From Torpedo marmorata (lineage: Eukaryota), in assembly GCA_977017645.1 (NCBI GenBank), contig OZ360231.1, positions 47,554,001 through 47,618,000 of the forward strand: DNA of 64,000 nucleotides, in the 5' to 3' direction. The translations under genes were made by a program, and so were the position numbers. This document shows, piece after piece, positions 3,574-55,413 of this stretch; positions within the stretch are counted from its first letter, which is position 1, and each line of letters begins with the position of its first letter. The notes below the pieces were generated by a model. It did not search any database, was not told where the DNA came from, and was given only the letters and a program-made list of their open reading frames with translations.

Positions 3574-4486
3574 AACTTCAGTAACACAAATACAGCTACA
3601 GTAACACTAATATTCACATCAGTGGTTTTAAATGATCACTAAATCACAACAGGGATTAAATATGGAATTAATCAACAGCTGTATCGGATGAAATAAACAG
3701 TGACCCAGTGTAAAGAAAAAAACGACTAAGTAAGTCTAAATAGCGGACAACCCACATTAATAATGTAAGTGGCAGAGTGATACGGATAATGCTATCAATT
3801 CACTGTACACGTTCACGTTAAACATATTCAAGATGTGAATAGTTCTGAGAGCAGAGGCGCTGGACCACAGAAACACCCGTGGGAAAGCGACACATTTTAA
3901 AGAGGATGTTATTGGATATTATGGGAAATGATATTCTAGAAACCACAAGCAGACAAACATTGCATTGAAAATAAAAGAAGGAGAATTGGGATCTGGAGCG
4001 CTGGAAGTTTTCCTTTTGTTTTAGAGGGACCCAGCATGTTTTCCCCACGAAATCGTGAACATTCGCATTAACTGAGGAAATTGGGCTCAAACCATTCAAG
4101 ATTCAAAACATTCTTACCACCAGCGAAATAAAAAATGCCTTTATAAAACTATCCAGCAAGAGTTCCACGAAAACAGATCACCCAAATATTTTGAACAGTG
4201 ATTTAATGGCCTTCGTGGTACCAGATCTGTGGAAGGTTCAAGCTCTAATTTGGGCGTCCCATTGAAGATTTTTTTAAAACGAATATCATCTGCAAGGAAA
4301 GTTCTGTCGGATATACCCAGGAGTTGTCTGTCTTTTTTGTTGGGGAGAGCAGGGCGCAGTACTTTAAGTCGGTAATGTGTTTCTGAAGCAGATCAGTGTT
4401 TTGGAAGGGGGTGCTGCGGCGAGGTATTGCTGATGGGCTGGGGTGAAGCTTTGCCTGAACTGCTTTTGGCTCCTATGTCCTCGTAG

Positions 4487-4727
4487 CAGAAGTTAGCCCT
4501 GTACGGCAAGATGCAGGAGTCCACGGAGAGCAACTCGCAGGGTAAAGAGAGCGAGAAGGAGCAGCCTCCCGAGGCAGAATACATCAGTTCCAGATGTGTG
4601 CTGCTCACATACTTCCAGGGGGACATAGGCGCCGTGGTGGATGAACACTTCAGCAGAGCTCTGAGCCACTTCAACGCAGAAAACCCGAGCTCAAAGACCC
4701 GCGCTTCGTCCAGCACGTTGTGGAAAG
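4487..4727 (+). CDS. VGLL3: VGLL3 coding exon 2 (Vg/Tondu TEAD-binding domain)
   Basis: Acceptor tcctcgtag, then QKLALYGKMQE..EAEYISSRCVLLTYFQGDIGAVVDEHFSRALS..TLWK (Tondu motif). Donor G|gtaggc, phase 1. Confidence 0.96.
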
Positions 4728-5945
4728 GTAGGCAACACGTCAAAGCAAAAACTTCAAATCCAATGAACAGTAATTGCTGAATATTTCTCTAAAGACTTTA
4801 AAAAAAAACATTTTCGGCTCTAGCTTACAGCGGTGGTAGTGGACACTAACATCCTGCAATGCTCAGCGCCAGAAATCTATTTAATAAAAATGGACGTTAT
4901 AATTCAACTTCAGGGGCAATGTTTGAGTATTTTATTCAAACCGATCCTATGTACGGTGGGGGTTATATGTTTTAGTTTAACTGATCACCATTTGACAAAT
5001 AGGGACAAAGTGGATGAAATGTCATTCCATCAATTCCTTAAATTGCAAAGATTAGTTTGCAAGTTTGCAAAGAGAGCGATAGGTAACCAGAACATTAATT
5101 ACTCCTGGCGGCATTTGGAAAGAGAATATATATTTTTCTTTGTTTCTGAAAAGGTTTTGTTTTACTCATTTCTAATTTAGTGTAGATATTTTCAGAGTTT
5201 TTCTGACTATAACTGTACTCTACAAATCTGACAAACATCAAGTCATGCTGAGATCTCTTACCCAGAAAGTCCCTTACCCGACTTAGCGACTGGGCCGTTC
5301 CATTTATTCACTGAGATCTTCGAGGCCAAGTAATTTTCACTCAACAGGTTACGTTATTGACGGAAACTGATTGTAACAAACGATTCTCTGTCTATTAGCT
5401 GCAGAGTCTTAATTCCGAGACGCAGCTCACAATCGCGAAATCAGACTGATTTAGTTTCAATAAAAGGGGTCTCGGAATAAGTTGTGTGCATCTCTGAGTT
5501 TGGAAGGGTTTACAGCGTGAAAATAAAGGTGGCGCAGTTGAACAAATCATAATTTGCAGAAAGCTACCAAACACTGTTTATCGACTTTGGATTTCAGACC
5601 TGAATGAAAGATAAAACGTTTTATTCCATCACTATCAATAGTTAACGCTGCATTTTTTTGAGAAATATATTCGCAGCAGTGGTGTCAACCATTGATAGAG
5701 ATGGGAGAGGAGATTTGAAGAGTTTTGAATCAACATTGATTCTGTTGATTACGTTATATCTATGAAAGAGTTTTACGGTGAGACGTTTATAAGAGTTTTA
5801 TGCAGCTTTAAGCCCCGTTTATTTTATTCACCCTTGTGCAGCGCTCTAATAAACGACTTACTGATTGTGCACTTCAGGATTCTGCAGTCACATGGCAACT
5901 CTTTTCACAGATATACCCAATTTCGAATTTCATGTTGTTTTTCAG

Positions 5946-6422
5946 AAGGATTGCCGGTTTCTACAAATCAGAAGAACAGCTTCCCTGCTTCTTTCTGGAG
6001 TAGCACGTATCAGGGCCCAACACCGCCCTGCCTGAGTGGGAGTCGTCCCGATTTCTCCGCAGCCGCCGCTGGTGTGTTTCATTCCCCTGATTCCATGGCT
6101 TGGCCTGGACACGGACTACACCAGCCAAGCGCTGCCCCACCAAACGCTGAGGCGTGGCCCTACACGTTGGCATCACAAGGGAGTTCCAGCTACCCACTGG
6201 TCCACGACGTTTACCCTCACGTTCACCACCCACATGCCCACGCCCACCATCATAATCCGCATCTCGACCCTCGTTATGGGTCATTGTTGGTGCCGTCGGT
6301 GAGGGCAGCGAGGATTGCGGCAGGACCAGGGGAGATCACAAAAACAGACGCCGCTGCTGCAGCTGCCGCTTGGACCGGAGCCTTTCATGGAACCCTAGAC
6401 GTGGCGCAGGGAGTAGACACAG
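5946..6422 (+). CDS. VGLL3: VGLL3 coding exon 3
   Basis: Acceptor gttttttcag. The peptide NSFPASFWSSTYQ..PPCLSGSRPDF..WPGHGLHQ..AWPYTLASQ..His-rich..RAARI..EITKT..AWTGAFHGTLD fits VGLL3 better than VGLL2. Donor G|gtgaga, phase 1. Confidence 0.95.
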
Positions 6423-25300: not shown

Positions 25301-26796
25301 AGTAACTTGCGCCTTCTCTTGTTTCATTTCAGATTTCCAACAGCTGCAGCATTTTTTTCCAGCTTATGCATATGGACACAGGCTTCAACCTCTGAGGCAC
25401 AAACGTTTCACTGGATATTGGAATTTAATGTAAATATTACAATGTGTTCCCTGCCCGTTTGAACTCTGGATTCTTATTTCAAGGCCTGCTTGAAAATTTC
25501 TTTGGATGTGGTGTTGGCTGTTTCCCAGTGAGAAATGAACATTGTTCTCGCTGCATTTGGACAACATGGATGACAACGGAGAGTGAGGCTTGTCAGGCCT
25601 GCAAATCTGCACTGACTAACTCACTTACACTGGCAGAAAAAAGGGTACATTCTAAATAAAATTTATTCAACACATTCATCAAAAGATATTTGTCAAACAA
25701 TAGTTTTTCAAAAATACTTTTCTATAAAAATGCAAGAACATCTACAAAAGCATTCTCCATTGATTTCTAAATGACATCCAAATAGTTGTGACAAGAGATG
25801 GGCACATCCTCCTCTCCTTAAACATGGTGGGTGAGAATGGGGTGCATGGTGACATTATGGCAATATTACCTTGAATAGCACACGATGAATGTATATCACT
25901 GAATCATAGGTTTAAGACATACTATCACAGACCTGCTTCATTTGTAAACTTACTCAGTTCAGAATGATCCAACAGTAGCAATTAGCAGTTGTAGCATGAA
26001 ATCAATGCTCTGAGTCCCAGAGTAATATTTCTGCACCAAAAACCTAATACATCTAGTTAAAACCTGCTCTACCTTAATCATAAACGATTCCAGATCTATC
26101 TGCACTATTGAAATATCACTTTTTATCTTGCACTAACTATAACTGAGAATATTTATCCTTTTATATTTATTATCTCTTTCTGTCTTGGCATATTGTGGTG
26201 ATTTAATTTATATTAATGTAGTTGGTGCATCTTGTGTACCTGTGTGGCTACAGCAAGTGAGAATTTTGGTTCGTCTTTACATTGTACTTATATATGTGAC
26301 AATAAACTCTTATCATCATCAGTTACTTTTCTTACATTCTACATCAGGAATCATTCTTAAACTTCTAGATTGTCAATTTCATTCATCAATCCAAAGAAAA
26401 GTTGCATGTGGAAAATCAGAAGGTCTTTTGGTAGTCAAAAGTTAAACTCAAAAAATCAGATAAAGCAGATTCCAATTTTATCAGATAGAGACTGGCTCCT
26501 CTAAGTTAGAAGCAGCTGTCAAGGCATTATTTCAAATAATACTGGCTTCTTCAATCTTCACATTTTACTGAGCTCTTTCATTCATTGACTGTAACATGGT
26601 ATCTGCAACGTTGAATTGTCTTCCTCGCTGCCACTTCTTTATTTTCTCTTCACTGCAATGCAAACATTGCAACACCACTTACACAAGGTTGGTATCGGGT
26701 ATTTTGGAATTTTGTTGGTCCCATTGCCTTTTCTAATTGCTGTGATCTAGTTGATGAGCATTTATTTCTGTGTAAACTATAAAGCCTATTGTCCTT

Positions 26797-27050
26797 TTTA
26801 AAAATTTAACATACGGCACAGTAACAGGCCATTTCGGCCCACGAGTCCGTGCCACCCAATTTACACCCAATTAACCTGCAACCCCCGGTACGTTTCGAAC
26901 GGTGGGAGGAAACCGGAGCCCCCGGGGAAAACCCACGCAGACACGGGGAGAACGTAGCAACTCCTTACAGATGGCGCGGGATTCGAACCCCGGTCCAGAT
27001 CGTTGGCGCTGTAAAGGCGTTGCGCTAACCGCTACGCCAACCATGCCGCC
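26797..27050 (-). mobile_element. tRNA-derived V-SINE (HE1-like) with CR1-type tail
   Basis: A box tggcgtagcggttag, B box ggttcgaatcc, V domain gcgtgggttttccccgg..tccggtttcctccca and tail gggccgaaatggcctgtt. Confidence 0.88.
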
Positions 27051-27144
27051 TAAATATGGTGCAACACCTACGGTTGGATTTTTAAAAAAAGAATCTGTTG
27101 CAATGCCCAGGATCATCTAAATCCTCCTCAATGCTTAAGTCAAA

Positions 27145-27364
27145 TTATTCATCTTCTGCATTTGTAACATAAGAATAATTGATAGCTTCCTCTTGCTGTG
27201 CACTGGAATCACTTCTCAATTTAAGTGAACTGATTTTTAGGCCATCACAGGGCAGTGGCATTACATGACGTAATGAAGTCCACTTCCATCGTCATTGGTC
27301 ACTGATGTCAGTCTTACACCAGTAGAAATGTCATCATCGTTTCTCTGCTTTTCACGTCCATCAC
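27145..27364 (-). pseudogene. ROS1-like: Damaged terminal coding exon of a ROS1-like receptor tyrosine kinase
   Basis: Frame A reads (G)DGREKQRNDDDISTGVRLTSVTNDDGSGLHYVM*, resembling ROS1 GEDGD..SDDIMPVALMETKNREGLNYMVL. After a 1-nt shift, frame B reads VMPLPCDG..EEAINYSYVTNAEDE*, resembling GLNYACLTH. The polypyrimidine tract ends in tg, not ag. Confidence 0.7.
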
Positions 27365-27498
27365 CAGGACACAAACAGAAGTTTATAAGACATGAAAATA
27401 GAATAAACAAACTAAAAGAATAAATTTTAAATCTGACATGAAAATAGAATAAACTAAAGTGCATGGCAGGCTATAAAAGAAACATCCAGGATAAATAG

Positions 27499-27773
27499 CA
27501 CTGGACAACGAAGATTTTGCTTCCTGAACACTTTTGAGTGAATTTTATGAACGAAAATCAGCAGCAAAACATTTTAGGTCAGTTGAACTAACGCAACGTG
27601 TCAGCATCATTATGCGATTAAACATGCTGAATTCAATGTTAATTTAATGTTTCTCCAACTTCCTACGTGATACAGCAAATCTGAAATTATCTTTGTGTTC
27701 AGCTTGAAGTTGTCTATCATAATCCTCTGTTTTTTTCAGGAAGCAATGTTTTGAAAAAAATTGTTGTCCAGTG
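27499..27773. mobile_element. Chapaev3 (CMC) non-autonomous MITE
   Basis: Termini CACTGGACAAC...GTTGTCCAGTG with flanks tag/taa. The internal sequence matches the element at 61685-62890. Confidence 0.75.
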
Positions 27774-29074
27774 TAATTAGTTATTCTAGAAACAAAAAAT
27801 ACAGCAGATACTGAAAGTTTACTATTCTATTATTTCATGTTACAGTATTATAATCTTACTATTTATAATCTTTGCAATATAACCTGGTATAAATAACCAT
27901 TCATTGGAACCATTCATTTGCACTTGTTGTTGAGCAATAAAGGTCACATACATTGACCAAGAAGGCATCAATTAAAATTTATTTTAAACGACATCTTTAA
28001 TCAAGACTTATTAAACATTACCACGTTAAACAGAACATGCAAGAACGGCCTAATACAAACCGAGAAATTGATTGAACCTCTGGTACAGTTTCCCCTTTCC
28101 AAGGATAACTGCATTCCCCTAACACCTACCATCATGTGAATGGATGTGGGCTGAATAAGGCAAAATCAATTGACTTAATAATTCACACTCAAAAAATACT
28201 CAATAACTGTTGCGCCTAATTATACATCAGGGCCAACGTTTTTCATTTTCTGATAACTATGAAAGCCATTATGTCCGTAGTAAGTAAACACTTCTGAAAT
28301 AGTTATGCTGCAAGTAGAAACAACACCTACTGGAAATATGTAAAATAGATAGATCACAATGTTAGTCAACGTCCAAAACTGACTAGGCATTTAGCTATAC
28401 TTACAGGGCAGAACATGTATTCAGCAGATGGAAGATGCCCACTATCAGTTTATTTCAAGTGAGTGCAGATTATTGCCTGACAGATGCATTTTTGTTGTGC
28501 TGTGATTCTATAAGAGTTTGTACATTTACAGAGTTGATTTGAGTTGCAGAAATGCAAAGAGTGATGCAAGGGTCTTTTTGCTGACTTGCAGATTTTTTTG
28601 CACAAACTAGTTGTTGTGAAGTACAAAGTGAATTTACAGAAAACTCTGCTTTAAAGTGTGGAATGGGTCAATAGGGCACATTATTGGCAATAATGCTGAA
28701 CACAAGATTCAAATGTCAGCTCCAAAGGCCAGTTTACCCATTAAATAAAACAAATCAGATTAATTTGTGATTTGTGGATGGAGAGACAGATAGATGTGCC
28801 TAGACATGGGAACATAAGCAGACATTCCCTTATGAGTGCACCGTAACTGGGAGAAAAGTGTGCAGAGCTAGAAGAGTGGCTGTAAGAGGACAGAGAGCTC
28901 ACAGCTGTAACCCCAAACACCCACATGCTCAGATAGTAATTCCCTTCCCTTAGTCTCAGCAAGGGGCAATCTGACAGGTGACCGATTCCATCAGAATGGC
29001 CTCATCAATCCCACGTGAATCAAAATTCTCCTGACATTCTACCAATTTCCTCAGATTCTGCTATTCACCTGCAC

Positions 29075-29245
29075 ACCAGGAACACTTTGTAATGGCCATT
29101 TAATCTACTGACCCACGCATCGTTGGGATGCAAGAGGAAACTGGAGTACCCAGGGAAAGCCATTCTGTCACAGGGAGAAAGTGCAAACTCCACACAGACA
29201 GCACCCAAGGTGGTCAAGATGGACCCCAGGTTGCAGGAACTTTGT
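29075..29245 (-). mobile_element. Older V-SINE copy
   Basis: ggtgctgtctgtgtggagtttgcactttctccctgtgac..gggtactccagtttcctc on the - strand (V domain). Confidence 0.7.
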
Positions 29246-29379
29246 TGAGGATTCTCATTTCTCAAGTTTCAATCTAACAGCTTCAGCAAATGCAAACATA
29301 AAAGGTCAGGCTGGCTGAAGGTGACCTCAGCTCAGTATTTCTGACTATTCATGGTAATTTTTCACTTTACCTTTCACTC

Positions 29380-30260
29380 TCTTACTTATCATGAATCTAT
29401 CGACCCAGCCTTAAGAATACTCAAGGACTCTGTCCCCATGTCTCTTAAGGGAAAGAGTTCCAAAGAGTCACGACCCTCTTGTCAGAAAAATTCCCCTCAA
29501 CTCTTTCTTAACCCTTTGGACTCTGGCCATTTTTAACCTTTCATAATATATACTCCAGACTGGGTCCATGGGTAAACCGGAGTTAGTTGATCTGTTCAGA
29601 CACTGATGCCACATTATATCTGGCCAGTCACTGTCCTGTTCATAACCTACATAGTCCTAAATACTCAAACAACAATTTTGAATGTTCTTACCTTTACTTC
29701 CAGTACTTTTTCTTGTTGTGGAACTTGGCGAAGCTGCTGTTTTTACCCCAAACTTTGCAAAGATACACTTTACAGTATGAACACCAGTATGAACCAGCTG
29801 GTGGTTGGGTATAAAACCAGTCCCGGTAAACCGGGACACGGAGTATATGCGCTTGTTGGTAGTCCCGGAAAACCAGGTCACAAAGTCCAAAGAGTGAAAT
29901 GTCTGACTCTCTATATTTAAACAATAACCACAAGTCTAATTCTTCATCCTCTCCACATCTACCTGACAAGACCCCTCAGAAATTCATATGTTTCAGTCTC
30001 CTAAATGCAGGTGAATACGAGCCTGGTCTGTCCAACCTTTCCAAAGAAAATGTGTGCATTCCAGACAAGCAGTCTCTGAACTGTTTTCAACACATTAATA
30101 TCCTTCCTTAGATAGGAGATCAATACTGTACACAGTAATCCAGATGTGGTTTCATCAATGCTCTATATTTCTGAAGCACAATCTCTCTACTTTATATTCT
30201 GCTCTTCTAACAATAAACAAAAACATCAGCTTTCCTAAATACTGGCATACTTGTCTTTTG
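29380..30260 (-). mobile_element. Decayed CR1 LINE interrupted by an unrelated insert (about 29535-29965)
   Basis: CR1-like 3' sequence (gagttccaaagagtcac..; ggagatcaatactgtacacagtaatccagatgtgg) lies on either side of a segment with repeated ccggtaaaccgg-like motifs. Confidence 0.5.
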
Positions 30261-30845
30261 TGAAACATTAGTTCTATTGTTCTCTCTCAACAGATGCTGG
30301 CTGACCTGCTGAGTATTTCCAGCATTTTTTGTTTTTATCTCAGAGCTCTGGGATCAACCATGTTTTGGTTTTTCATTTAAAACTATATTTATCATTGTGT
30401 AAACAGGTAACATGAACCTTCTAATAGCACTTTAATTCAAAGTCACAAATATCGTACCTCCTATATCCCATTGGTGCTAAAGTGACATAATTCAACATGT
30501 TAGAATAAATCATCACCCTTTAAAAAAAATGTAATAGAACATTTGTTTCTTATGAAACAGATTTGTTTTTGCTAAATCCTGTGGTATCTCTGCAGACTTT
30601 GAATATGATGTTGACCTTGTAGTCTGTTTTTAAATAGGTTTAAGTAAAAACACAGAGATGCTGGAGGAACTCAGCCGGTCTCACAGCATCCATGAGGTAA
30701 AATAGGTTTGCTCAGTCAATGTATGGTTGAACTCAACTTGAATATTCATGTATAATTAAACAGCCAAAATTAAATAAAAATAAAGAAACAAATTCCACAT
30801 GACACCATTCAAACATCTACTTCTGTTCAGAGTTGTAGAACAGTT

Positions 30846-31075
30846 CAAATCAAGTCAAGTTTATTATCATCTGATTGTACAAGTACAACCTGACGAAACA
30901 GCGTTCTCCGGTCCTCGGTGCAAAACATGCAGACACACAACCAGACATAACACACATACAGACAAATAATACATATGCAGGACAAGTATTATATCTATAA
31001 AAATAAATAAATAAATAAATAAATAGATAGATATTGTTTTGTACAAATGAGAGTCTCGGATGTTTAGTGTGGCCA
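30846..31075 (-). mobile_element. Rex1-type LINE 3' UTR/tail
   Basis: Closely matches the tail of the element at 24763. Confidence 0.8.
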
Positions 31076-31550
31076 CTGTTTGGCTTGCCAGGCGGGAGGT
31101 CACTGCAAATGGCCTCTCCTACATTACTGCATCCGTAGCAACACCTTCTCGTCGGTGCCCCCCGTTTTCACTGAGTTTGCTACGTCATGGCGCAACCGAG
31201 TGTCCGGCGGTATAACTGGATGGGTAGGCTGGGCTTGTTAGCCTTGGTTGGCAGCCAGCCTAAGAGAAGGAAAACTCTGATTTCAAACCCGGGCAGATGG
31301 GGCACGTTAGCCTTGTCAGGCCATCCATCTAGGAGAAGGACAATCTGACGTAACACCTACGACCCGAGGACCTGGCTGTTACCGTCCCAGCTTGATCGGC
31401 CGTGGCAGATAAACCCCTGGTGTAAAGGGTGGGGCCAGTACTGCGCACACTGCACTCCACCTAAAAAATCCATTGCGCAGGCTCGAAGGACATGCCCATG
31501 TCTACGATCCTTCCTAAATCTTCATTCGCGAAGCCAAGCCATGATGATGA
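31076..31550 (+). mobile_element. Probable RTE-related non-autonomous retroposon
   Basis: Two copies of an RTE 5'-UTR-like motif (ggcagccagcctaagagaaggaaaactctg; ggccatccatctaggagaagga) and an (atg)n tail. The family assignment is from memory. Confidence 0.45.
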
Positions 31551-32745
31551 CTTCCAAATATGTTAAAGCTTCCCCATAGGTTGATTCCCTGAAATCATGT
31601 TCATTGTTCGAAGACTCCCAGTGAATGTCATTGATGCCATATTCTGCTCAATGGCAGAACACAGGACAAACAACTGACGCTTGATACCACTGCCCAGCTA
31701 TAATTCCACACACGCCAATTTCTGGCAACTTGTAAAACTTGTTTGGAAGTCAGGACAATTAAACATCTAAGACATGTACCACAGTGTGAGGTCATTCACA
31801 GAGACCCTCATGAAAACTTTGTCTTCAAGTCAGATATCCTCTCTGGATTCAGACAACTATAACAGGCTACTGAGATGGCAGTGACCTCCTACGGGATTGG
31901 TCATCTTGCTCGTAGAATCCCCTGACCTGTCATTGCAAAGGCAATTTCTCCATTTTTTTCCCCACTGTCCACAATAATCTGAGAGAATTCAACATCAAAA
32001 CCTATTTTTCTATTTCATACTTTCCTCTTCAACACCCAACCTAAATGTAACAAAATTCTGATGCCTCAGCATTAATTATTTTACTTTACAATTTCTAATC
32101 TCAGCTAAATCATGAGAAATGTATTCAAGATCATAAAAGAATAAATCCAATTTTTAAAAGCTTATTTTTTCCATTGGTTTCAATTGAATAAAAGTATATC
32201 ATGTCATTATGTCATCAGACAGATGACATACTCAATTGATTTACGACTCGGGAAGATGAAAATTTACCTGGTCTCCATCTACACGAATTTGTATGGCAAA
32301 CACTTTCTCCCTCTAGCAATACTTTCCCAATCCACATCTATTTTTTTTTATCTAGATGTACATCTGGTTAACCCTGCCATTCCTCTCTTTTGCTTGGTGT
32401 TTATTGTGCTTTCGTTTCTCATCCGAGGTTCTGAAGGGAGCTGTTAGAATGGAGTGGCACTTCACAGAGAGGTTTCCAGCCCAAGGATTACTGAGGGTAG
32501 TCATACTGTGGTGATGATTCAAATGTTAAGAGTAATAAGGGATTTAGGTTATTGCAGCAACAGTAGAGAAAGTGATTCCTTCCAACAAGTTTGAGGCATT
32601 GACTTTCATTGGAAAAGGTAGTTCAGCAGAATCATCAAATGGATTACATGTCACCAAAGAATAACTGGGTAAAGATGAAAATGGGACAAATTTTACAGAG
32701 CAGGAAAAGGTGAGGTGGAAATAGAAATTGACTCACAGATCTAAA

Positions 32746-32893
32746 GATTACTTTGATGAAGGGCTCAAGCCCGAAACGTCGGTAATGTATTTCTACCTTT
32801 GCTACATAAAATACACTGTTTGACCTGCTGAGTTTCTCCAGCATTTGTGTTTTTTACTTCAACCACGGTGTCCACCGATTTTCGTGATTTACT
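32746..32893 (+). mobile_element. Penelope-like terminal repeat with a minimal hammerhead-like motif
   Basis: attact TTGATGA a gggct-ca-agccc GAAA C GTC ggtaat, followed by tgacctgctgagtttctccagcatt. Confidence 0.65.
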
Positions 32894-33088
32894 TTTAAAG
32901 ATTAACAATGCAGTATTTTAGACATTTCCAAACGGTAAAGATTTATACATAAAACGTGACTCCTTGAATATCCAAATTGCTCACTATAAATGAAGGCTAT
33001 AAAAAAACTAAAGGTGAAGGGAAGAGGATTGCAACTGACAGAAGTGATAAAAATGGGAGGTTGAGAGATTGCAAGTCATAAACAGAAA

Positions 33089-33323
33089 TAGCGATTAGTG
33101 CAATGCTATTACAGCGCCAGCGACCCAGGTTCGAATACGACGCTGTCTGTAAGGAGTTTGTACATTCTCCCTGTGTCTGCGTGGGTTTTCCCTGGGTGCT
33201 CCGATTTCCTTCCACTCTTCAAAATATACGGGGGTTGTAGGTTAATTGGGGTATTTGGGCGGTGCAGGCGCGTGGGCCGGAAGGGCCTGTTACCGTGCTA
33301 TATGTCTACATTTAAATTTAAAT
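33089..33323 (+). mobile_element. V-SINE (HE1-like)
   Basis: Same family as the copy at 26797: B box ggttcgaat, V domain, CR1 tail and (tttaaa)n end. Confidence 0.85.
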
Positions 33324-35444
33324 TCTCTTTTCCCCAGTATCCATGCTTAGTCTTGTAGATTCCAGGCAGACACCATCCATTTTAAGTGAAATTTATTTTG
33401 TTCCACTAATACAGGTAATTTTAATCTCATTGTTATCAATTTCTCTGCAAAGGGAATTTGCCCTTTTTGTTTAACCTGTCTTGGCTCTCATAATTTTACA
33501 TAGTTCCTTATAATACAACCCCACCTTAACCAAGCTCCTGTCCTGACAACATCCTCATTAATCTCTCCAACCTCTGTGGAGCCAACACCTCCTCCAGTCA
33601 TTATGAACTGAGAGGAAACAGTCCAGCTGTATCACAAGTGTACTGAAATTCACACGTCTCATAGTCTGTACCTTGATCACGAATGACAAGTAACCTGCTT
33701 GCCTTCTTACCTGTCACCTTATCCACATTTTCTGTTTTCTTCAGAGACACCTCTGCTGCTCTATTTCTTACTTCCCGATTGCTTATCGGGCACTCCCTTC
33801 CCCAAATCATTACCTCATGTTCCTCCAGACTTAGTGGCATTGGCTCTTTTTGTGACTGGAAATTTCTTCCGTGTTATTAATCACACTGATTTGTTGATAT
33901 CATCAGCAAATTTCTTAATCGATGGCCTCCATATTTAAATCTGAATCACTGACACATCCAATGAAAAATAATGTTCCTGGTGCTGTGCCCAGGGAAATCA
34001 AAACTCTGGTCACAACGTTCTGATTGACCATTCCCCTTGGCTTTTCCCCACTGAACCAATGTTTTGTCCACCTGGTCACCTTGGGCTTGTACTTTCCAAA
34101 ATCAATCTGCCTCAAGGCTCCCTTTCTACCGAACAGCAACCAGTAATGAATTAAAATCCAAGCATATAGCAAGCATTACTAATGTTCCAGTAAAATTTCT
34201 CCCATTATCATCTGGTTTGCTCCATCTCCATTACATTTATTCCTTATTCTTCCATTTACTTAGTCCCTTGGGTTCAAAGGTGATCTGTCTCCACTCCAGT
34301 ATTGTGGAATCTATGGTGACTGATGAGACTCACGTGGGACCTGCAGACTGCACCACAGGTGCTACTTGACAGGGCAGATGTTAATTCCTGATTGGAGCCC
34401 TCCCAGCATGTGGTAAAGTATTCCATAACACCACCTGCCCAAGGCTTGCTTTGGCTAAGTGCTTTCAAGTTGTTCCTTCTTTTTAAAGCAATTAAACAAC
34501 TTCAGGCTCATTTCTACACATACTCAGGAATGCTAGATTTAATTTCAATACATCCAAAGTATTCTATCAATACAGCTAGTTTATTTATAATATATTCTCC
34601 ACTGTTTTTTTATTTGGTTTTCAAACCCTCGAAGGCTTCTAGAAATGGAATATGAAACTCTAATTACACTGCATAATTTGAAACATTTCATCCATCCCAC
34701 CCCATCAGCTCATGTGTTCCTTCCCCTCCAAATCCTGTCTTCTCCCCATCCAACCCCTATGTTCTCCCCCCATTTCCCTTTCCTCGTACAGTTTAGGATC
34801 TGTGAGCACTTGCAAAAACAGTAATGAAAACACTACTCTCAGCCAAATAACTAAAATAGAAACATTACTTGCATTTTTCAAATAGTTCCTCTATTCATAA
34901 GAAAATATTAGGCATAGTGCATCACTTCTAGAGGCAATCGAACTGAATGCACAAATATAACATTACTTTTGCAACTCATGAATCACAAGGTTTTTACATC
35001 TGTTCAGCATGTCGTGCTCTTCAATCATTTGACTGTAGTTATGCCATGTGCTTCCAGAATTCACAATGAGATCACTGTCTTCTGGTGTGCACTGGTGGCA
35101 GTCTGTCAAAACTCTAGGTTTATTTTCACGAAAAAGTTTAAACAAAAGTGAAGGCCAAAATTCACAATATCTTTGCCATTCGTCAGCATTAATGTGAAAT
35201 GTTAAAGATGTAGGATCAAAGTACAATGATTTACTTATTTTGCAACTGGTTGTTCTGAAAGTGCTGTTGTCAGTGGCTTCAGTTTCAGATCTTGACAGAT
35301 CCCTGTTTCTAACAGACTTTTGCAGTCTCCATCTATTATTATTCTGAGTGTAATTTGATACCTTCTTCTAATTTAACATGGGTCCCTTCGAAAATGCACT
35401 TGGCTTGATAATAGGGGAAACCATTCATGTACCTCTGGAATCGA

Positions 35445-35800
35445 GTGTTTTGAAGAGGGCGCGCAAAATCGTTGAGGACCCCTATCGCATGCAGCATCTT
35501 CCAGCTGCTCCCGTTGGGAAAGAGATACAGGAGTATCAGAGCCAGAACCACCAGGCTGAGAAACAGCTTCTTCCCACGGGCAGTGATACTGATGAACGAC
35601 TGAAGAACTGCTCATACAATCCCTCTGAGACTCTACTATTTATTCAACAATATTTATTTATTGTTTACATATGTGTGTACATACTGCTTATGTATCATTT
35701 GTCTCTATGTGTGTTTTCACGTTTTTGCACCGTGGACTGGAGAACGCTGTTTCATCAGGTTGTACTTGCACCATCAGATGATAATAAACTTGAACTTGAA
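35445..35800 (+). mobile_element. Rex1-type LINE 3' fragment
   Basis: Matches the reverse complement of the 24763 element; ends gataataaacttgaacttgaa. Confidence 0.85.
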
Positions 35801-36552
35801 GTGTTTCATTTCTTCTTGCAACATACACTCTGAGATTTGCTGACATTCCATCAACTCCAATAATATCCATAGTTTTCTGCTCCTTCTTCAAAAGCACTCC
35901 CAATACCCCCATTACTGATTTGATATTGGACTCGAAAAGCCAGGAGACAACAAACACTTTTATGGCAGTGGTCGGAGCTGAACTCAAACTCTGAACCCAG
36001 ACACAGACTGAAACACCACCATGTGAACTTACCCTGCCTCTCAGTTTCATACCAAACCTGATCTGGCAATAGAGTTTGAAACTTCCTGATAGATAGTGTC
36101 GTGGAAAACTTTTGTCAACAAAACAAATCACATAATTACAAAACTTCTATTGGTCAATTTGATTCTTAAGTGAAAGGAAGAAGTGAATATTTGGCATAGT
36201 ATCAAAATTAGATAAAAATGACAACCATAACATGATTAGTAATTGATGGGATTCATATGATATTTTTCATAAAAATATCATTGGAAATCTAATTTCAAAT
36301 AAAATATAACTTTATTGATACAACGGAGCAGATGCTCTGGTGTGGAATGACATTCCAGCAACCAATCTCAAGTTTAATTGGTCTCTTAATGCAAAGTGGT
36401 TCAATCCTTTATTCGAGTGTGATTGCAAAGTCCTTCGTTTAAAACTAAGACAAAACTGATAAGCCGTAAGTCAAGTAAACGTCAATACGAGAAAATCTGA
36501 CAGTCAAACAATGCACACAAAAAGTATTGAATACCAAAGAGAATTTGGACAT

Positions 36553-36802
36553 TGTTAGGGGGAACATGAGGGGGAACTTCTTCACTCAGAGAGTGGTGGG
36601 AGTGTGGAACGAGCTTCAAGCTGAAGTGGTAGATGCGGGCTCGATTTTAACATTTAAGGGAAATTTGGACAGGTATATGGATGGGAGAGGTATGGAGGGC
36701 TATGGACTGAGTGCAGGTCAGTGGGATTAGGCAAGAAAAAGTGGTTCGGCACAGACTAGAGGGGCCGAAGTGGCCTGTTTCTGTGCTGTAATTGTTCTAT
36801 GG
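36553..36802 (+). mobile_element. CR1 LINE 3' end
   Basis: Encodes MRGNFFTQRVVGVWNEL..TFKGNLDRYM, followed by the tail gggccgaagtggcctgtttctgtgctgta. Confidence 0.88.
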
Positions 36803-37689
36803 TACAGGAGGCAGTGAAATACATGGCCATATTTTTTGCATGCAATTTAAAGTTGCTACTTCATCATTAAATGGTGAATTCTGAAAGATCACAGATCTTT
36901 TCAGGTCACCAGAGAGAATGAGGGAGTTAACATCAATGGAGGAACAGAGAAGAGGTCAAACAGATTGGGGAATGGGGAAGTCAAGGGGAGTCTTTAAGAG
37001 TATTGGATTGGGAATGGTTCTGAGGGCTGTAGCTGTAAAGGACATTAAGAGGACTCAAAATTGTTAGAGGCTGGAGGACACGATGAGGAGCTGAAAGCCA
37101 GAGATTGTTTACTGAGGAGACTAACAACCAGGACACAAAAGTCTTCAGATGCTGGAGTCTGGAGCAAAAAAAAACAGCTGGAGGTATTCAATGGTCTCGC
37201 AGCTTCACATGGAGTTCTACAGCAGGAATAAGGCCCTTCGGTCCAATTGGCCCATGATAACCAAGTGGTCTACCCAAATTAAAACTGGAACTTAGAATAT
37301 TCATTAAATGACCATCCCACTTCACGCATGCCTCCAGAAAAACTGGATGAGACTGCGTTCAAAGTTAAGTGGCCTTGTGTGTGAGATTTTAAAATTTTTT
37401 ACCCCTCTAAACCCATCCAAACCCATTTGATTTTGAATGTCAAAACTCCCCATTAATACAGTTACAGTGTTCTTGATTTTTACATTTTTTTAAAAATCGG
37501 ACAGAATCAAGTGCAAATTTTCAAAAGAAACTAAATATTGACAACTTTTGTGACTTCAGGAATATTTCTACCACTTTATTCATCTGTCTGCAAAGAATTA
37601 TAGGAAATGTTTGTGATTCTCTAATGAAACCAAGGTGGATGTTAGTATGATGTGAATTTTCCATATAAAAGAAGATATGATAGAATCCA

Positions 37690-39170
37690 ATGAGCGCCCC
37701 CGTCTTAAAAAAGTTTTCCTTCAGAATATTAAAAAGAATGGAGACTTGGCGTTACCTAACTTTAGGTTCTATTACTGGGCAGCTAATATTAGATATGTTA
37801 TTTTTTGGATTCATCACAAAGAAAATCTAGGTGCTTCAAGATGGATTAATCTAGAAATTAAATCCACCAAAAAGCATTCTCTTCTTTCGATACTTGGAGC
37901 ACCTTTACCTTTTTTTGGCCTCCAAATTAACTAATAATTTTGTCGTAAGACATACATTGAGAATCTGGTTTCAATTTAGGAAACATTTTGGATACCATAG
38001 ATTCTTATTAATCAGTCCTATTTTAGGTAATTCCTTCTTTTTACCTTCGGTTCAAGATATCGGTTACCATCATTGGTCAAATTTAGGTATCCAATCCTTT
38101 TTAGATATCTTTACTGACCAAAATCTTGCCTCTTTTGAACAATTATCCACCAAATTTATAATACCTAGACATCACTTTTTTTGTTATTTACAGGTTAGGA
38201 GCTTTTTGAATTCTTTAATTTTGAAGCTCCCTGAAGACCTGGAACCTAATATGATAGGGATGGTTTATAATTTCAAACCTGATTATAAAGGGGTGGTATC
38301 TGGCCTTTATGAATTACTTCTAAATTCTAGGGATAGTTCCCTGGACAGAATTAAAAAACTATGGGAACAAGATTTTCAACAGCTATTTTCTGAAACTACA
38401 TGGGACTCTATTTTGAAGCGAGTGCATTCATCCTCTCTTTGTGCTCGACACTCATTATTACAATTTAAGGTAGTACACAGGGCCCACTATTCCAAAGTCC
38501 AATTGACTAAATTCTATTCTAATCTCTCATCTAAATGTAATAAATGTATAACTGAAGAAGGTACACTGTATCATATGTTCTGGTTGTGACCTTCTCTTTC
38601 CAATTTTTGGGAAGGGGTATTTCGTACCTCATCTTTAGTTCTTAATATTACTTTGACTCCAAATCCTTTTCTTGCTCTCTTTGGAATAAGTGGGCCAACA
38701 GGTTTGATATTGACTGCTTCCCTTATCGCTAGAAGGGCCATATTAATGAGATGGAAAGATGCTGTCCCTCCCATTCAGACTCAATGGTTGTCCGATATGA
38801 TGGCATGTTTGACTTTGGAAAAATATTAGATGTTCCACTACTGAAATGAATCTTAACTTTGTTTCTTTATGGGGTTCCTTTCTTAATTATTTTCAAAATT
38901 TGTAAGATTAATTAGTTTCTGGTATTTTACCCCATTGTTTACCGTTTTTTTTATTATTAGTAGTGGACTGTTTGTGTTAAGACAGTAGCCTCCAAAGGGA
39001 GGGTATAGATAATTAGATAATTAGTATAGTGTTTCTTTTACTTCTTTTCAATGTAACATAGGTTTCAATACCATTTTTACTACTATATAAGATTTGTTAA
39101 TATTTTATTTTATTGTCATGTACCTATGTAACATTTATTTGATGAAACCAATAAAAATATTGAAAAAGAA
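37690..39170 (+). mobile_element. 5'-truncated L1-clade LINE (ORF2 C-terminal part and 3' UTR)
   Basis: GDLALPNFRFYYWAAN..LLQFKVVHRAHYS..CNKC..GTLYHMFW (L1 C-terminal Zn-finger region), with frameshifts. Ends in aataaa and an A-rich tail. Confidence 0.88.
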
Positions 39171-39607
39171 GTTTGATGTGAATGACCATCGCTCTGAATT
39201 TTTATTCCTCAGGACCTTCGCAGCCACCTACAAGAGAAAAATTAGCATTGCCTGACGCAGTTGAAATCCAAGTGTCACCAGGGATGTCTGAGGAATGGAG
39301 CTAGCATGTAAACTGTAGCACCAATCCTCACAGCAGATATCTAAGCACTGAGAATTCTTTCATAGTTTTTCCAAGTTTGCAGAATGCCAACAATGAGGAC
39401 CTTGAAAAGACTTCAGGAGTTCATTGCAAGCTTGCAAAAGCATCAGACTCCCCACCCCTTCAAGCACTCATAGATTACCTAGCAGAATATTACTGTGAAT
39501 GCCCAATTCCAAAGATGATTTGCTGCTGCCTCCGACCTTATGTCAGAAAACCTACTGTCTTTCTCTGCTCATTTGTCTTCTGATTGATAAATTCAGCACG
39601 ATATGTA

Positions 39608-40700
39608 ATATTTCAGATTTATTGTCAGAGTACATACATGACATCACATACACCCTGAGATTCCTTTTTTCTGCTGGTGAGGCACAATTACCTCTTATTG
39701 GTAGTGCAAAAAAACTGTACACAGCATATACATGTAAACAAATAAAGAACTGTAAACAGATAACGAATATAAACAAACTGACAGCAATACAGAGAGAATT
39801 TAAAAAATCAATAAAGTGCACAAGTAAGAGTTCTTAAATGAGTCCCTAATTGAGTTTGTCGTTGAGGAGTCTGATGGTGGAGGGGTAGCAGCTGTTCGTG
39901 AATCTGGTGGTGCGAGTCTTGTGGCGCCTATACCTCTTTCCTGATGGCAGCAGCGAGAACAGGGCGTGTGCTGGGTGGTGTGGATCCTTTATGATTGCTG
40001 TTGCTCTCCGACGGCAGCGTTCCCTGTAGATGTTCTCAGTAGTGGGGAGGGTTTTGCCTGTGATGTCCTGGGCTATGTCCATTACCTTTTGCAGGGCTTT
40101 ACGCTCAGGGGAATTGGTGTCCCCATAATGCAGGAGGTCAGCACACTTCCTACCACACAACTGTAGAAATTTGCCAGGGTTTCTGGTGTCATACCAAACC
40201 TTTGCAAACTCCTGAGAAAGTAGGGGTGCTTTCTTCACGATGCCATCAGTGTGTTGGGTCCAGGAAAGATCCTCCGAGAGAGTGACTCCCAAGAATTTAA
40301 TTTGCTCATCCTCTCCATCTCTGATCCCCCAATGGTCACTGGATTGTATACCTCTGGCTTTCCCTTCCTGAAGTCAACAATCAGCTCCTTAGTTTTGGTG
40401 ACATTGAGTGCGATGTTGTTGTTGGTGCACCATTCAGCCAGGTTTTCAATTTCCCTCCTATATGCTGGCTCATCACCTTTATTTATACAACCCACTACCG
40501 TGATATCGTCAGCAAATTTGTAGATGGTGTTGTTGTCATACTGAGCCACACAGTCGTAGGTGTAAAGTAAGTAGGGCAGGGGGCTAAGAACACAGCCCTG
40601 TGGTGCTCCAGTACTGATGGAGATTGGGGAGGAGATGTTCTTACCAATCCTCACTGATTGTGGTCTGGAGGTGAGGAAATCCATGATCCAATTACACGGT
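39608..40700 (-). mobile_element. 5'-truncated Rex1 LINE
   Basis: [62 protein letters not shown], followed by the tail. Confidence 0.9.
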
Positions 40701-41123
40701 GGTGTACAACCATTATTTGCTGTACAACCATTATTTAAACTCCATTCAAGGCCAAGAAACAACTGAATATCAGAACGGACATATTTGTTGAAGTAAATCC
40801 TGCTTCATAATTGATGTTACAGTATTTGCTTTGATTGATGTAGAGATCATCTAAAAAGGCTTGCTCAATTTGGTTTGTTCAATGGCTGTGTTTATTAATG
40901 AGATTGATACTGTTGGTGCTCTCCAGCAACAGTGTTGGAATCAATTGTGATTGTTTTACATATTAATGCATTAAAGGTGCTACATGTGAACATTTTTGGA
41001 GTTCTTTTTAAAAAAACAGGCCCCACACACATTTACTGGTAGCTATGCAAAAAGTCATCAATGTTAATTCAGTGGAATGTAATACAACAGACTCTCTCTC
41101 TCTTCAGTGTGCTTGCCCTAAAC

Positions 41124-41497
41124 CAGTGGTTTTCAAACTGCCCCCCTAAACTCACATTCCACCTTAAGTAATCCCTATACCATAAATGCTCTGTGATTGG
41201 TAAGGGATTGCTGAAGGTGGTATGTGAGTGGGAAGGGAAGGTTGAGAACCACTGCTCTAGACCCAATTGTTACTGAAATATTTTGCTTGAGAAAAATTGT
41301 CATTGGCCCATTTCCTTTGAAGTTATGAAACCGTGCACACAACGAGTCAATTAGGCACGATTAAAACAGTGGTTTTCAAACTTTTTATTTCCACTCACAT
41401 ACCACCTTTAGCAATCCCTTACTAATCACAGAGCACTTATGGTATAGGGATTGCTTAAGGTGGAATGTGAGTTTAGGGGGCAGTTTGAAAACCACTG
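41124..41497. mobile_element. hAT MITE made of two inverted monomer units
   Basis: Termini CAGTGGTTTTCAAACTGCCCC.. and a perfect 8-bp TSD, ccctaaac (41116-41123 and 41498-41505). Confidence 0.9.
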
Positions 41498-42619
41498 CCC
41501 TAAACCTATTCATGCCAATGCAATTGGGATGAGGTGTTACAGCAAGTGAAAACGTCTAAGTGTGTTTTTAAATGCTCAGTGCTTAGCTTCCCTGATAACT
41601 AGGTGGTTAGTGATTAGATGTACGACAATACTGCATTGCTGTTGACCCACTAATGGGCTGATTGATATCAGGGTTGCTGTCCTTGAACATATCAAATAAC
41701 TGCAGGGGAGGGAGTTCCCTGTGTATACCAATGGCATCCTGGAGGTCTTGGTATTCTCTTAGCAGGGTCAAAGTAGTACAGATTGTCCTCTTTCACTTTT
41801 GCTGAGCATGATCTTTAGAATCCCTTCCCGACTAAAGTTCAAAGCATCCATTTCAGTAAGGAATGAGAAGTAGTTGTGGATGCAATGTTTTATTGGAAAG
41901 GGCAGCTTTTTCTAATGTGGGTTATGTGATGCCAATATAATGTGACTGCTGTCTATAATTCCTTGTTTCCCCTCTCTCTCTTTCCTTAACTGTTGGGGTT
42001 ATATTTGTTACTTTATAATCTGTGGGAACCATACTAGAATCTATAACATTCTGAAAGGTGACAACCAGTGCTTTCATCATCTCCAAGGCCACCTCCTTTA
42101 AATTCCAGCCACTTACTTCAGATTATGCCAATCAAAGCAGAGAATCCACTTCAAGATAAGAAAGTGAGGACTTTTCCCTCAGGCGGTTGATGGTGGGGAA
42201 TTAGGTAATGATGATGCCATTAAATGTCATGGGGAGGGTAGAGACTTTCTCTTGTTAGGAGTTGGTCATTGCCGAGCACACTGTCGTGTGAATGGGTTTA
42301 AAAAGTAGTGCAGTTGGCACTGTACAACGTCATTTTGGTTGACAAAGGACATTGTAGGTTTGATCAGGAAAAAGCATATGACAGGCAATTGAGTGAGCCC
42401 CTTGAAGAATATAGTTGCTGTAGGAGAGGACTTACAAATAAAATTAGGAGAGGAAAAAGGGCCATGAAAAATTCTCGGCAGGCAAGAAAAATTCTCGGCA
42501 GGCAGAAAATCCCAAGAATATCTGTAAGTAAATTAAGACAGGTAGCTCTGGATAGAGTGGTCTCCTCAGGGACCGGACCACAAGTGTAATCTATGTCTGG
42601 ACCCTGGGTAATGATGCGG

Positions 42620-43335
42620 CCTCTACTGCCTCATTGGACAGAAAATTCTATAGATTCACTTCTCTCTGGGAAAAGCAGTTCCTCCTCATCTCAGTCTCCT
42701 CCAAATCTTGCGGCATTGACTTCGAGTTCTAGTCTCACTGCCAGTGGGAACAACTTCCCTGCTTCTATTTTATCTACTCCTTTCATAATTTTGAATGCTT
42801 CTATAAGAACCCCTTCTTTCTAAACTCCAATGAGCATTGTCCCAGCCTGCTCAATCTCTCTTCATAAACTAATCCCCTCATTTCCAGAATCAACCCCCTC
42901 TGCACCTCCTCCAAAGCTAGCATATTTCTCAAATGAGTAGACGAGCATTGCCCGCAGTACTCCAGGTGCAGCCACATCAGTACCATGCACAGTTGCAACA
43001 GAACCTCCCTGGTCTAATTCAATCCCTCACGCAAAGATCAACAACATCTCAATTGCATTCTTGATTACCTGCTGCACCTGCAAACTAACTTTTGGGGATT
43101 AATGTACAAACACTCCCAGTACTCTCTGTACAACAACATGCTGCAATTTTCACCATTAAAGTCATAGTCCGATCTACTATTTTTCCTTTCAAAGAGGATG
43201 ACCTCACATTTACTGACATTGTACTCCATCTGCCAGTCCTTTGCCGCCTCACTTAACCTATCCATATCTCTCTGTGGACTCCGAGTCCTCTACACAATTT
43301 GCTTTTCCACTTAATTTCATTCCATCAGCAAACTT
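42620..43335 (-). mobile_element. Decayed CR1 LINE ORF2 3' portion
   Basis: DRLSEAAKDWQMEYNVSKCEVI and HLEYCGQC..LEEVQR..YEERLSRLG..SLE are CR1 RT C-terminal motifs. Confidence 0.85.
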
Positions 43336-43519
43336 ATCAGTTCTGCTGCCAAATTTGGGATTCTTTGTGCGAGGTGCAAGCCTTTCATTGTCCAGAGTGT
43401 TAAACTCCAGTATGGAAGCACCTGCATTATATGAGCATTAGTCACTGAGTTAGCCTGACTGCTCCTCTAGTGTGGATATCCGTGTATTCTATTCCTGCCT
43501 GCCAGGCAGTGAACAATTC

Positions 43520-44125
43520 CGGGGAAGCGGAGGACTGGAGCAGGGCACCAGAGAACGGGAAGATCACCCCCCCCCCCCCGTCTGAGAAGGAGAAGCGGAG
43601 GAGATGACCCACGGGACGGTGACCACGGCGGTGGACCGGTGAGGGGCTCTGAGGCTGAAGGACCAGTGCATGCGGCGGGCTGCTGGCGACTCGAGGCGAG
43701 GAACCCGCGGAGGCTGTGGGCTGCTGGAGACTGCTGTCGGGGGACTCACGCCGGGCTGCGGACTGCTGGAGGCTGGCTCGAACTGGCTGGAGGAGTACCA
43801 GGTATCGGAACCGGGATGCGGGGGGGTGCCGAGGGCGACCTGACCGTATTGGAGGTTTGGATCTGGAGCTCGGGTTGCCGATGGTTTGGACCGGACTCTG
43901 TGTGGCTGCGGAGGCTGCGGAAGCGCTGGAGGCGAATCTATGGACACTCGGTGACTCTGAGGGGACTCTCTTTTGCTTCTCTTTCTCTGACTGTAAGGAA
44001 TGTTAGAGGCACTTAGGCAATTTCTGCCAGTGGCGAATCTGTCTGCCTTGCAGCAGGCAAAAAGAAATTTCATGGAATATGACACTGTCTTATTACTATG
44101 ACAATAAATTGAATCTTGAATCTTG
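43520..44125 (+). mobile_element. GC-rich non-coding retroposon with a Rex1-like 3' tail
   Basis: A CpG-rich body is followed by tctgtctgccttgcagcaggcaaaaagaaatttc..tgacaataaa(ttgaatc)n. Confidence 0.6.
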
Positions 44126-45918
44126 CGTTACTTCAGGGTCTACCTCACTGGCATATTGCTTGCAAGCATGAGCACAAACACACCACAAGCTTCTCAAAAT
44201 GTGGGCAATGGGACATTTGCCACAAGTGTGCTCGCGTGTGATACATACTAAACTGAAAGCAAATTCATCCCTGAACAATGAGCTTCGAGGGCTGATTCTT
44301 GATGTCAACACAATATGATAAGAGAAAGGTCAATGCAGATCTTGCAGGAATAACAAAGGGTCTAATTGTAATGTATACAACCAATGCAAGTGTGTATTCA
44401 ATGTAGGGGGACAAAGAGGCACGAGGATAGATTAAACAACTAACACTCAGTATCTGTCAAGTATTCCTTTACTACCATAAAAGTGAAAGTGTAATTAGAG
44501 AGGAGAGGAAGCATGTAAAAGAATTGAAAGGCTCAAAACTGAGGATGAGCATCACATAGTAAACACTGAATGACTAATTCCTCTAATCAACCATAAGGGA
44601 AGACATTAACAGTCCAGCCTTCTCAAATGCCTACACCCATGATATAACTGAACTTATTATAAACAAAATCAAAACATTGGGCGAGGGAATTGCATAACTG
44701 ACCAAACATCTCTCATGAGATGTGATCTGGTTTGGTGTTGAAGGGTTGTGGACCAGTAAAGGTCTTCCAGGACAAGTTACTTCTGTCCTCTCCTCACATC
44801 TTTCAACATGCAGTGTCACTCAATATTAAACAATAAAGGATACTGTGATAAATATTTTACTCTTCCAACTCCACGCTAATTGGAACATCCCAATTGATAG
44901 ACCCTCTGACTGAACATACACTATCTTATTTATTAAGCAGTCATCAACTTCAAAGTACTTGAGTTATTTGATTCTGTTTATGGCCTGAAATTAGTTTCAT
45001 CTGCACACTTAAAAAGCTAGAAGTAAACATCTTAAAAGACACGGCATGGTTTTTTTTACACAAAATGACAAACAATAAATTGTTATCCAAGGATCTTTGC
45101 TCACACTAAAACAGGTATTTTAGTAAGTAATTATAATGGTGTGTTTTACGATATTTATAAAGATTGGAAAGATCAAAAACATATCCAGGCACGTTCATAA
45201 AACAATCCCAGTTAGGAAGTATATCTGTAGTACGACTTTTACTGTGAACAAATAAAATTGATAAAAAAACAGCTAAAACAGAACCTTAGGAATACATTCC
45301 ATGATGCAATGACCCAAGACCACTATTATTTCTAATAAAATGTATCTATACTATAGCTCCACAGTGGTCTAACATGTGCAATAGTTAACAGTGGGATGTC
45401 CAATGTACCAAGAATGACAAAGGGCAGTGTGGGAATAAAATTCTTGACAGTAGCCACTACACTGATGTAAAAGTCACCCTGTCATCCTCCTAAACACCTG
45501 TCAATCACTGGAACACAGTAACCACGACACCCTGCTGTAAAAAGGCAAGTACTCTGCTGGCTGCTGATCTTCATATAAAACCCTCACTGCAGGCGCACGG
45601 TGGACTGGCTACCTGGGAATGTGAGCGCGAGGGCAGACTTGTCCATTGGCCTCAACTTAAACAAACAACTGGTGAATGTTCCCTTAAAAGATGCAGTCTG
45701 GGCTCAATTCAATTGGATATTAGAACAATAGAATTAACATCCAATTTGTATCAATTCCCCTTAGGCCAGGGACAGTCATGTTGTCTTCCATCTATGCTGC
45801 TAAGAAACACAAAGCTGTTATTCTAACACTTCAGAAGGACAAAGCTATATTCTCCCACTTTTTCCTATTTAGGGATTACAATACCATCAGTTATTCAGCC
45901 AAAGCATGGCACATTTAC

Positions 45919-46103
45919 CTTCAAATGCTTGATTGACAATACCCTGGGAGATGTCACCATTCCTGCAGCCATCATTGTAGCGCACAAGAGCATTCTGACT
46001 GCCTTGGGGGCTGCTTTTCAGGTGTTCCAGGCAGTTTTCAATGTATTGGAATGATGTCCTCTTGTGGGGTTCACTTGTCCAACACTTGAGCATCAGCTGG
46101 TGG
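45919..46103 (-). CDS. ROS1-like: Penultimate exon of a ROS1-like receptor tyrosine kinase (end of kinase domain); functional status unknown
   Basis: Acceptor tttccttgtttctaaaacag (phase 2). Encodes HQLMLKCWTSEPHKRTSFQYIENCLEHLK..GIVNQAFE; compare human ROS1 WNLMTQCWAQEPDQRPTFHRIQDQL..GVINESFEG. Donor G|gtaaat, phase 1. Confidence 0.8.
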
Positions 46104-55410: not shown

Positions 55411-55413
55411 AAT

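Follow-up and report, generated by a model that had tools for sequence, protein, structure and literature searches.

A disabled paralogue of ROS1 beside a VGLL3-type gene in the ray Torpedo marmorata

Does a ray genome hold the remains of a second ROS1-type receptor next to VGLL3? The question was raised by a 64,000-nucleotide (nt) stretch of Torpedo marmorata DNA (the window; C43:47,554,001-47,618,000 of the 6.2-Gb assembly, C43 being contig OZ360231.1 of GCA_977017645.1), in which an initial annotation had read two minus-strand exons as the end of a second ROS1-family gene. We analysed the window together with a further 400 kb beyond it. The window exons are best explained as the last part (3' end) of a second ROS-class receptor tyrosine kinase (RTK) gene that has been disabled. 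This gene, here called ROSL, is a paralogue of ROS1 and likely its sister by whole-genome duplication (WGD); we put the probability of this account at roughly 0.86.

The last kinase-domain exon of the ROSL pseudogene (exon A; 45919..46103, minus strand) is free of lesions, with an AG acceptor and a GT donor. Its 185 nt form a 61-codon open frame (HQLMLKCW...GIVNQAFEG) that covers the end of a kinase domain and the GIVNQAFEG segment, as annotated. It matches Heterodontus protein P0125 at 57 of 68 positions and six database proteins out of seven candidates: four from sharks and chimaera, one unnamed fragment and one marsupial protein. Identity to the shark and chimaera entries, labelled 'ROS-like', is 79-85% (E 1e-22 to 1e-25) and to the marsupial entry 64%, a similarity to the shark proteins that by sequence exceeds chance by far. 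A comparison of exon A with the PDB was undiagnostic (PDGFRA, FYN, chicken ROS1 and SRC on top, E 0.001-0.005).

The terminal exon, which encodes the cytoplasmic tail (26484..27364, minus strand), has a phase that suits exon A, and its homology to the shark tail extends to the final residues (...EEPVSI, then TGA) at 26484; its start at 27364 was correctly placed by the initial annotation, but the exon runs on further than had been seen. It is clearly broken. The acceptor is TG instead of AG (the first in-frame AG lies 63 nt further downstream), stops fall at 27263-61, 27147-45, ~26650 and ~26532, and frameshifts at ~27238 and ~26619. Both predicted tyrosine motifs are present: GLHYVM (27261..27281 including the TAA that directly follows it, minus strand) aligns with the GLNY[LM] motif of ROS1, and the INYSYV region (27148..27189, minus strand) lies in a different frame, with the stop at 27147-27145 after it. 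A repeat of ~250 bp resembling a short interspersed nuclear element (SINE; 26802..27050, minus strand), marked by a depth spike in public sequencing runs, sits inside the coding exon and has 27 more copies within the 464 kb examined. The two exons fit together in phase, and only exon A is intact.

To which family does this gene belong? In two homologue searches (120 best rows listed out of 6562 in one and out of 789 in the other, with each 90% cluster represented by one protein), full-length relatives of 2,200-2,500 residues were among the matches listed for Heterodontus, Heptranchias, Chiloscyllium, Callorhinchus, Polyodon and Rhinatrema, and partial relatives for Cetorhinus, Rhincodon, Mustelus and Pristiophorus. 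An additional search found ROSL in Acipenser and Huso, and a 50%-cluster search gave no new ROSL lineage among the seven examined of 150 rows. All named shark proteins among the 240 rows listed are ROSL rather than ROS1, and named ray proteins do not occur there. Shark ROS1 would be expected in these lists, because ROS1 of chimaera, coelacanth and sturgeon appeared in them, but the lists are capped and clustered. In a kinase-domain tree of 40 chosen rows (most birds, teleosts and insects left out), a ROSL clade (support 100/98) unites sharks, chimaera, sturgeons and a caecilian with short marsupial models, and chimaera, coelacanth, sturgeons, teleosts and tetrapods form a ROS1 clade (99/96). 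Chimaera and paddlefish fall in each, Callorhinchus and Polyodon both carrying the two genes, and hagfish and invertebrates fall outside both. The marsupial members, from Dromiciops and Trichosurus, are models of 500 residues that keep all kinase motifs and have no transmembrane segment; either the models are incomplete or, perhaps, the genes are decaying. To call the gene absent from mammals would therefore be too wide.

A second tree of 23 rows, built on FN3, transmembrane and kinase regions and including the pseudogene (X at its breaks), again separates ROSL and ROS1 (both 100/99) and places the window gene inside the elasmobranch ROSL, as sister to four sharks (96/93), a position that suggests a ray. 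Forcing a single cartilaginous-fish clade costs 148 log units (approximately unbiased (AU) test, p-AU 6.6e-5), so a duplication confined to cartilaginous fishes is rejected. A duplication after the invertebrate split and before crown jawed vertebrates is favoured in both trees (97/91 with 40 rows, 93/87 with 23). These results support ROSL as a ROS1 paralogue older than crown jawed vertebrates, in line with the paralogy first proposed. The assignment to the ROS/Sevenless group comes from the position of ROSL as sister to the ROS1 clade in these trees, which hold no ALK or INSR, and from scores, the kinase of shark protein P0128 reaching ~470 bits against ROS1 and ~300 against ALK.

ROSL resembles ROS1 from end to end. 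The intact Heptranchias protein aligns with residues 27-2302 of chicken ROS1 (structure 9oyz; the human kinase structure is 3zbf) at 1701 bits, the next family, ALK, reaching ~300. The two share an identical FN3 and kinase architecture, the catalytic motifs, the first tail tyrosine motif and a tail-to-tail VGLL neighbour. All ten ROSL proteins checked keep the G-loop, VA[VI]K, HRDLAARN, DFG and APE-type motifs, and the orthologues, which align with bird ROS1 from end to end, are predicted to have a very long FN3/YWTD-propeller ectodomain and one transmembrane helix. On the other hand, the ROSL activation loop reads DYY[RK]KEGE where ROS1 has DYYRK[RK]GE, the ROSL tail is longer, and its second tyrosine motif is not co-linear. 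Identity between ROSL and ROS1 is 33-36% in the ectodomain and 70-76% in the kinase, against 45-70% and 81-89% among ROSL proteins, and ROSL differs further in forming a separate clade, in its link to VGLL3 and POU1F1, and in being a pseudogene in this genome. In sharks, chimaera, sturgeons and caecilian, intact ROSL is predicted to be a receptor of 2,200-2,500 residues, with a signal peptide, a cysteine-rich N-terminus, FN3 domains, propellers, one transmembrane helix, a kinase and a tail with tyrosine motifs.

Public databases already hold these genes under automatic names, as the initial annotation had suspected. NCBI entries labelled 'ROS-like' include the ROSL orthologues of Callorhinchus (XP_042189964.1), Polyodon (XP_041115905.1), Acipenser (XP_034778617.2) and Dromiciops (XP_043849361.1), and the same label is carried by the canonical ROS1 entries P0211 and P0012. 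Members of the ROSL clade named simply 'ROS' (P0125 of Heterodontus; P0136/P0386 of Rhinatrema) are, judged by their place in the tree, cases of hidden paralogy. Brunet et al. (2016; PMC4898815) count Ros1 among five single-gene RTK subfamilies and name five RTK duplicates from WGD (ohnologues) missing in human: Axl-like, Kdr-like, Ddr2-like, EphA4-like and Styk1-like. Like these, ROSL would be an ancient duplicate that non-mammalian jawed vertebrates retained and that disappeared from one lineage after another; none of the five is a ROS gene, and ROSL would be the sixth. The literature searched (without most subscription papers and without the supplementary 7,376-gene table of PMC4898815, which may list such sequences) contained no account of a second ROS gene in vertebrates. 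As far as these searches reach, the gene is known only as an automatic database label.

The neighbourhood bears on how the duplication arose. A VGLL gene with the Tondu domain (PF07545) occupies 2547..6422 of the plus strand with three exons (ATG at 2547; Tondu exon 4487-4727; third exon 5946-6422); its last exon was not located. It is convergent with ROSL and carries what we take to be VGLL3-specific sequence. A Pit-1/POU1F1 POU exon, identical at 50 of 52 positions, lies 133 kb upstream at C43:47,420,594, and POU1F1 neighbours VGLL3 in human as well; a crude motif scan, itself a weak test, did not pick up CHMP2B in 60 kb of sequence upstream of the window. The Tondu exon finds three more VGLL genes, giving four VGLL1-3-type genes on C43, C25, C41 and C47. 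The one on C25 (C25:18,961,941), which we take by its sequence to be VGLL2, stands convergent to relics of ROS1, so that a POU1F1-VGLL3-ROSL block on C43 can be set against a VGLL2-ROS1 block on C25, the separate locus that the initial annotation had proposed to look for. An LCCL exon of DCBLD type lies at C43:49.21 Mb, 1.4 Mb beyond ROSL; its subtype name, like that of a similar exon on C41, is tentative. PMC3232202 gives the human 6q22.1 gene order as VGLL2-ROS1-DCBLD1-GOPC. The two blocks of this genome share the VGLL pair, with the DCBLD-type exon near ROSL only.

This arrangement is what a WGD quartet would leave if two of its members had retained ROS, short of full proof of a paralogon. 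An old segmental duplication of the VGLL-ROS block before crown jawed vertebrates, with the copy equally dead here, would also suit a tree that dates the split only to before the divergence of chimaera and bony fishes, and a set of shared neighbours consisting of VGLL and a distant DCBLD-type exon. We consider it unlikely: four VGLL1-3-type genes on four contigs, with DCBLD-type exons near two of them (C41 and C43), are the pattern expected after two rounds of WGD (2R). Several points nevertheless weigh against our account. WGD, rather than segmental duplication, is what we infer as the origin, and the hagfish ROS is long-branched and unsure in position, so the split is not datable to the first round (1R) as against the second. 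The C43 DCBLD-type exon is not head-to-head with ROSL, unlike DCBLD1 and ROS1 in human, and a search of 520 kb next to the C25 VGLL2 found no DCBLD exon. The names VGLL3 and VGLL2 rest on synteny and on sequence taken to be typical of each, the ESM Atlas having yielded no VGLL name for the window exon, and the synteny of ROSL was read in this genome only.

A further VGLL and DCBLD pair was noted on C41, where the fourth VGLL1-3-type gene (C41:10,608,108, minus strand; L062) is separated by 240 kb from an LCCL exon of DCBLD type (C41:10,366,741, minus strand; L136), an arrangement like the human VGLL2-ROS1-DCBLD1 block. No third ROS copy or relic was found in the 200 kb between the two genes, whether by tblastn of 12 proteins or by a profile built from 14 sequences. 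The pair is possibly another ohnologue pair lost in mammals.

How far has ROSL decayed? Mapping of shark proteins exon by exon shows that the locus spans ~245 kb between a signal-peptide exon at C43:47,825,740 and the tail exon. The part of the window from 46104 to 64000 (minus strand) belongs to a 63-kb intron, which explains why the initial annotation rightly found no upstream kinase exons there; the next exon is at C43:47,663,073-47,663,216. Beyond the window (C43:47,663,073-47,825,740, minus strand) are six more kinase exons, juxtamembrane and transmembrane exons, and FN3, propeller and signal-peptide exons with many disablements. Exon remnants match 1690 of the 2396 residues of P0128, the largest unmatched stretch being residues 60-337, the first FN3 domains. 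Within the intron lies a Gypsy/Gmr1-type long terminal repeat (LTR) retrotransposon (window 54503-60422) with 900-bp LTRs that are 98.2% identical; its 1051-residue open reading frame (ORF; 56242-59394) has SCAN, integrase and RNase H matches and no Pfam match to a reverse-transcriptase core.

A frameshift-aware alignment of 34 regions against Heterodontus P0125 listed 14 stops and 19 frameshifts. After removal of three stops (intronic, at a SINE junction or poorly aligned) and four frameshifts (at exon edges or spurious), 11 in-exon stops and 15 frameshifts were retained. One frameshift falls in the first kinase exon, and a frameshift is recorded at C43:47,686,877. Four splice sites are non-canonical (three acceptors, those of kinase exons 2 and 6 and the tail exon, and one donor, that of the catalytic exon) and a fifth is a weak GC donor. 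SINEs interrupt three exons (tail, juxtamembrane and one propeller exon), and an ORF resembling a long interspersed nuclear element lies in another. Conserved kinase residues are substituted (VAVK to EAIK, LLPVRWMAPE to HLPLGWMVPE), and the end branch of the window gene in the 23-row tree is 0.19, against 0.025-0.07 in sharks. An intact frame with its catalytic motifs is not found at this locus, and the neighbouring VGLL3 and POU1F1 exons are clean. ROSL in this genome is a unitary pseudogene, incapable of making protein; of the initial 'kept or recently decaying', decay is borne out, but the gene is not kept and is thoroughly dead here.

Four public sequencing runs were compared with positions 26200-27800 of the window. 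Run X1 differs from this genome at 12 positions in 497 nt, and one of its contigs extends 26 nt into the tail SINE, which is thus not an assembly artefact; the SINE is also bridged by a contig of run X2. In place of the TAA after GLHYVM all four runs have TAT, a point against our account, as this lesion is either private to this genome or an error. The lesions are thus of different ages. Contig coordinates of runs X4 and X12 imply by arithmetic a 681-nt tail exon, one base off the shark frame, which is only a hint that the tail is altered in relatives too. Separately, P0005, an unnamed 140-residue assembly ORF, matches exon A and its upstream intron at ~72%, with a four-residue deletion and extra substitutions, hinting by its sequence at ROSL decay in a related organism.

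The stop absent from all four runs and the open frames of exon A and the catalytic exon are what one would expect if ROSL were alive in this species, with its lesions due to assembly errors or with a short product made. Set against them are some 30 independent lesions of five kinds, retroposon insertions included, beside clean VGLL3 and POU1F1 exons, together with the substituted kinase residues and the SINE junction recovered in run X1; a living gene is very improbable.

Canonical ROS1 is itself a relic in this genome, a point that the initial annotation missed. Two relic exons remain on the plus strand of C25, convergent with VGLL2: 18,786,189-18,786,382 and 18,818,824-18,818,892 (L065 and L068). 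One is an FN3 exon that carries two stops and a frameshift, the other a short kinase exon; their identity to chimaera ROS1 is 62-87%, against 37-56% to ROSL. No ROS1 exons besides these were found in C25 18.45-18.97 Mb (520 kb, a stretch without N). The window gene is the best ROS match of the genome, and NCBI calls its Heterodontus and Rhinatrema orthologues 'ROS', yet that it could be this genome's ROS1 relocated beside VGLL3 is refuted by the relic still beside VGLL2, by its tree position outside the ROS1 clade, by chimaera and paddlefish holding both genes and by the AU test, leaving that idea with next to no probability. The findings that the initial annotation had said would count against it (grouping with a non-ROS1 RTK, a place as the only ROS1 among canonical orthologues, a VGLL2 neighbour) did not emerge.

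A genome-wide search with the ROS1 catalytic exon gave the ROSL pseudogene as best (13 matches); no other ROS catalytic exon was found among the 104 of 104 candidates scored, the remaining matches reading as insulin-receptor-type and other kinases. Because ROSL is dead and ROS1 is reduced to two relic exons, the genome appears, as far as its sequence tells, to be without any intact ROS receptor; two genome-wide searches used a stricter first look, which tempers this conclusion. The genome also holds other kinase frames of note. C2:196,329,038-196,329,688 (plus strand; L031) holds an uninterrupted 248-codon frame with most of a kinase domain, which we take to be MuSK-like and which is possibly an intron-poor MuSK paralogue or a retrocopy. 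At C80:6,548,122, 6,605,710 and 6,693,922 lie three tandem tyrosine-kinase ORFs with open frames of 704-844 residues and similar scores.

How might a living ROSL work? The tyrosine of the GLNY motif of ROS1 docks SHP2. Signalling like that of ROS1 is suggested for ROSL because the architecture, the catalytic motifs and the GLNY-aligned tyrosine motif are kept. An oligomeric secreted ligand, most likely of the NELL family, would cluster the receptor through its first propeller, the clustered kinases would phosphorylate one another in trans, and the tail tyrosines would recruit SH2 proteins. Two papers report that ROS1 uses its first propeller to bind NEL/NELL2 and that clustering driven by the ligand activates it (PMC13044245, PMC13100127). 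Of the 12 NEL-contact positions of chicken ROS1 given in PMC13044245, ROSL keeps 3-5, the same range as non-sauropsid ROS1, which lends no support for the ligand either way. NELL-family activation of living ROSL seems somewhat more probable than not. Historically, 1R/2R would have duplicated the VGLL-ROS block; the line to sharks and rays would have lost ROS1 early, and ROSL would have disappeared later from this ray lineage and, independently, from most bony vertebrates. We give even odds to a broader picture in which ancestral jawed vertebrates had two ROS receptors, sharks (perhaps caecilians) use only ROSL, rays are ROS-null, and ROSL is a second NELL-family receptor that persisted into marsupials.

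ROS1 is a cancer drug target. The reference survey of vertebrate RTKs (PMC4898815) regards it as refractory to duplicate retention. A second full-length member of the class changes the ancestral RTK count and reveals mis-orthology in public annotation. The locus itself is of limited interest, as the window copy is no more than a fossil; the ROSL/ROS1 pair would offer a natural comparison for ligand recognition. PMC13044245 describes ROS1 as the receptor through which NELL2 acts in the lumicrine signalling for sperm maturation. If rays are indeed ROS-null, they would be vertebrates with internal fertilisation and an epididymis that lack it, and with both ROS genes dead in one genome the need for ROS signalling becomes testable.

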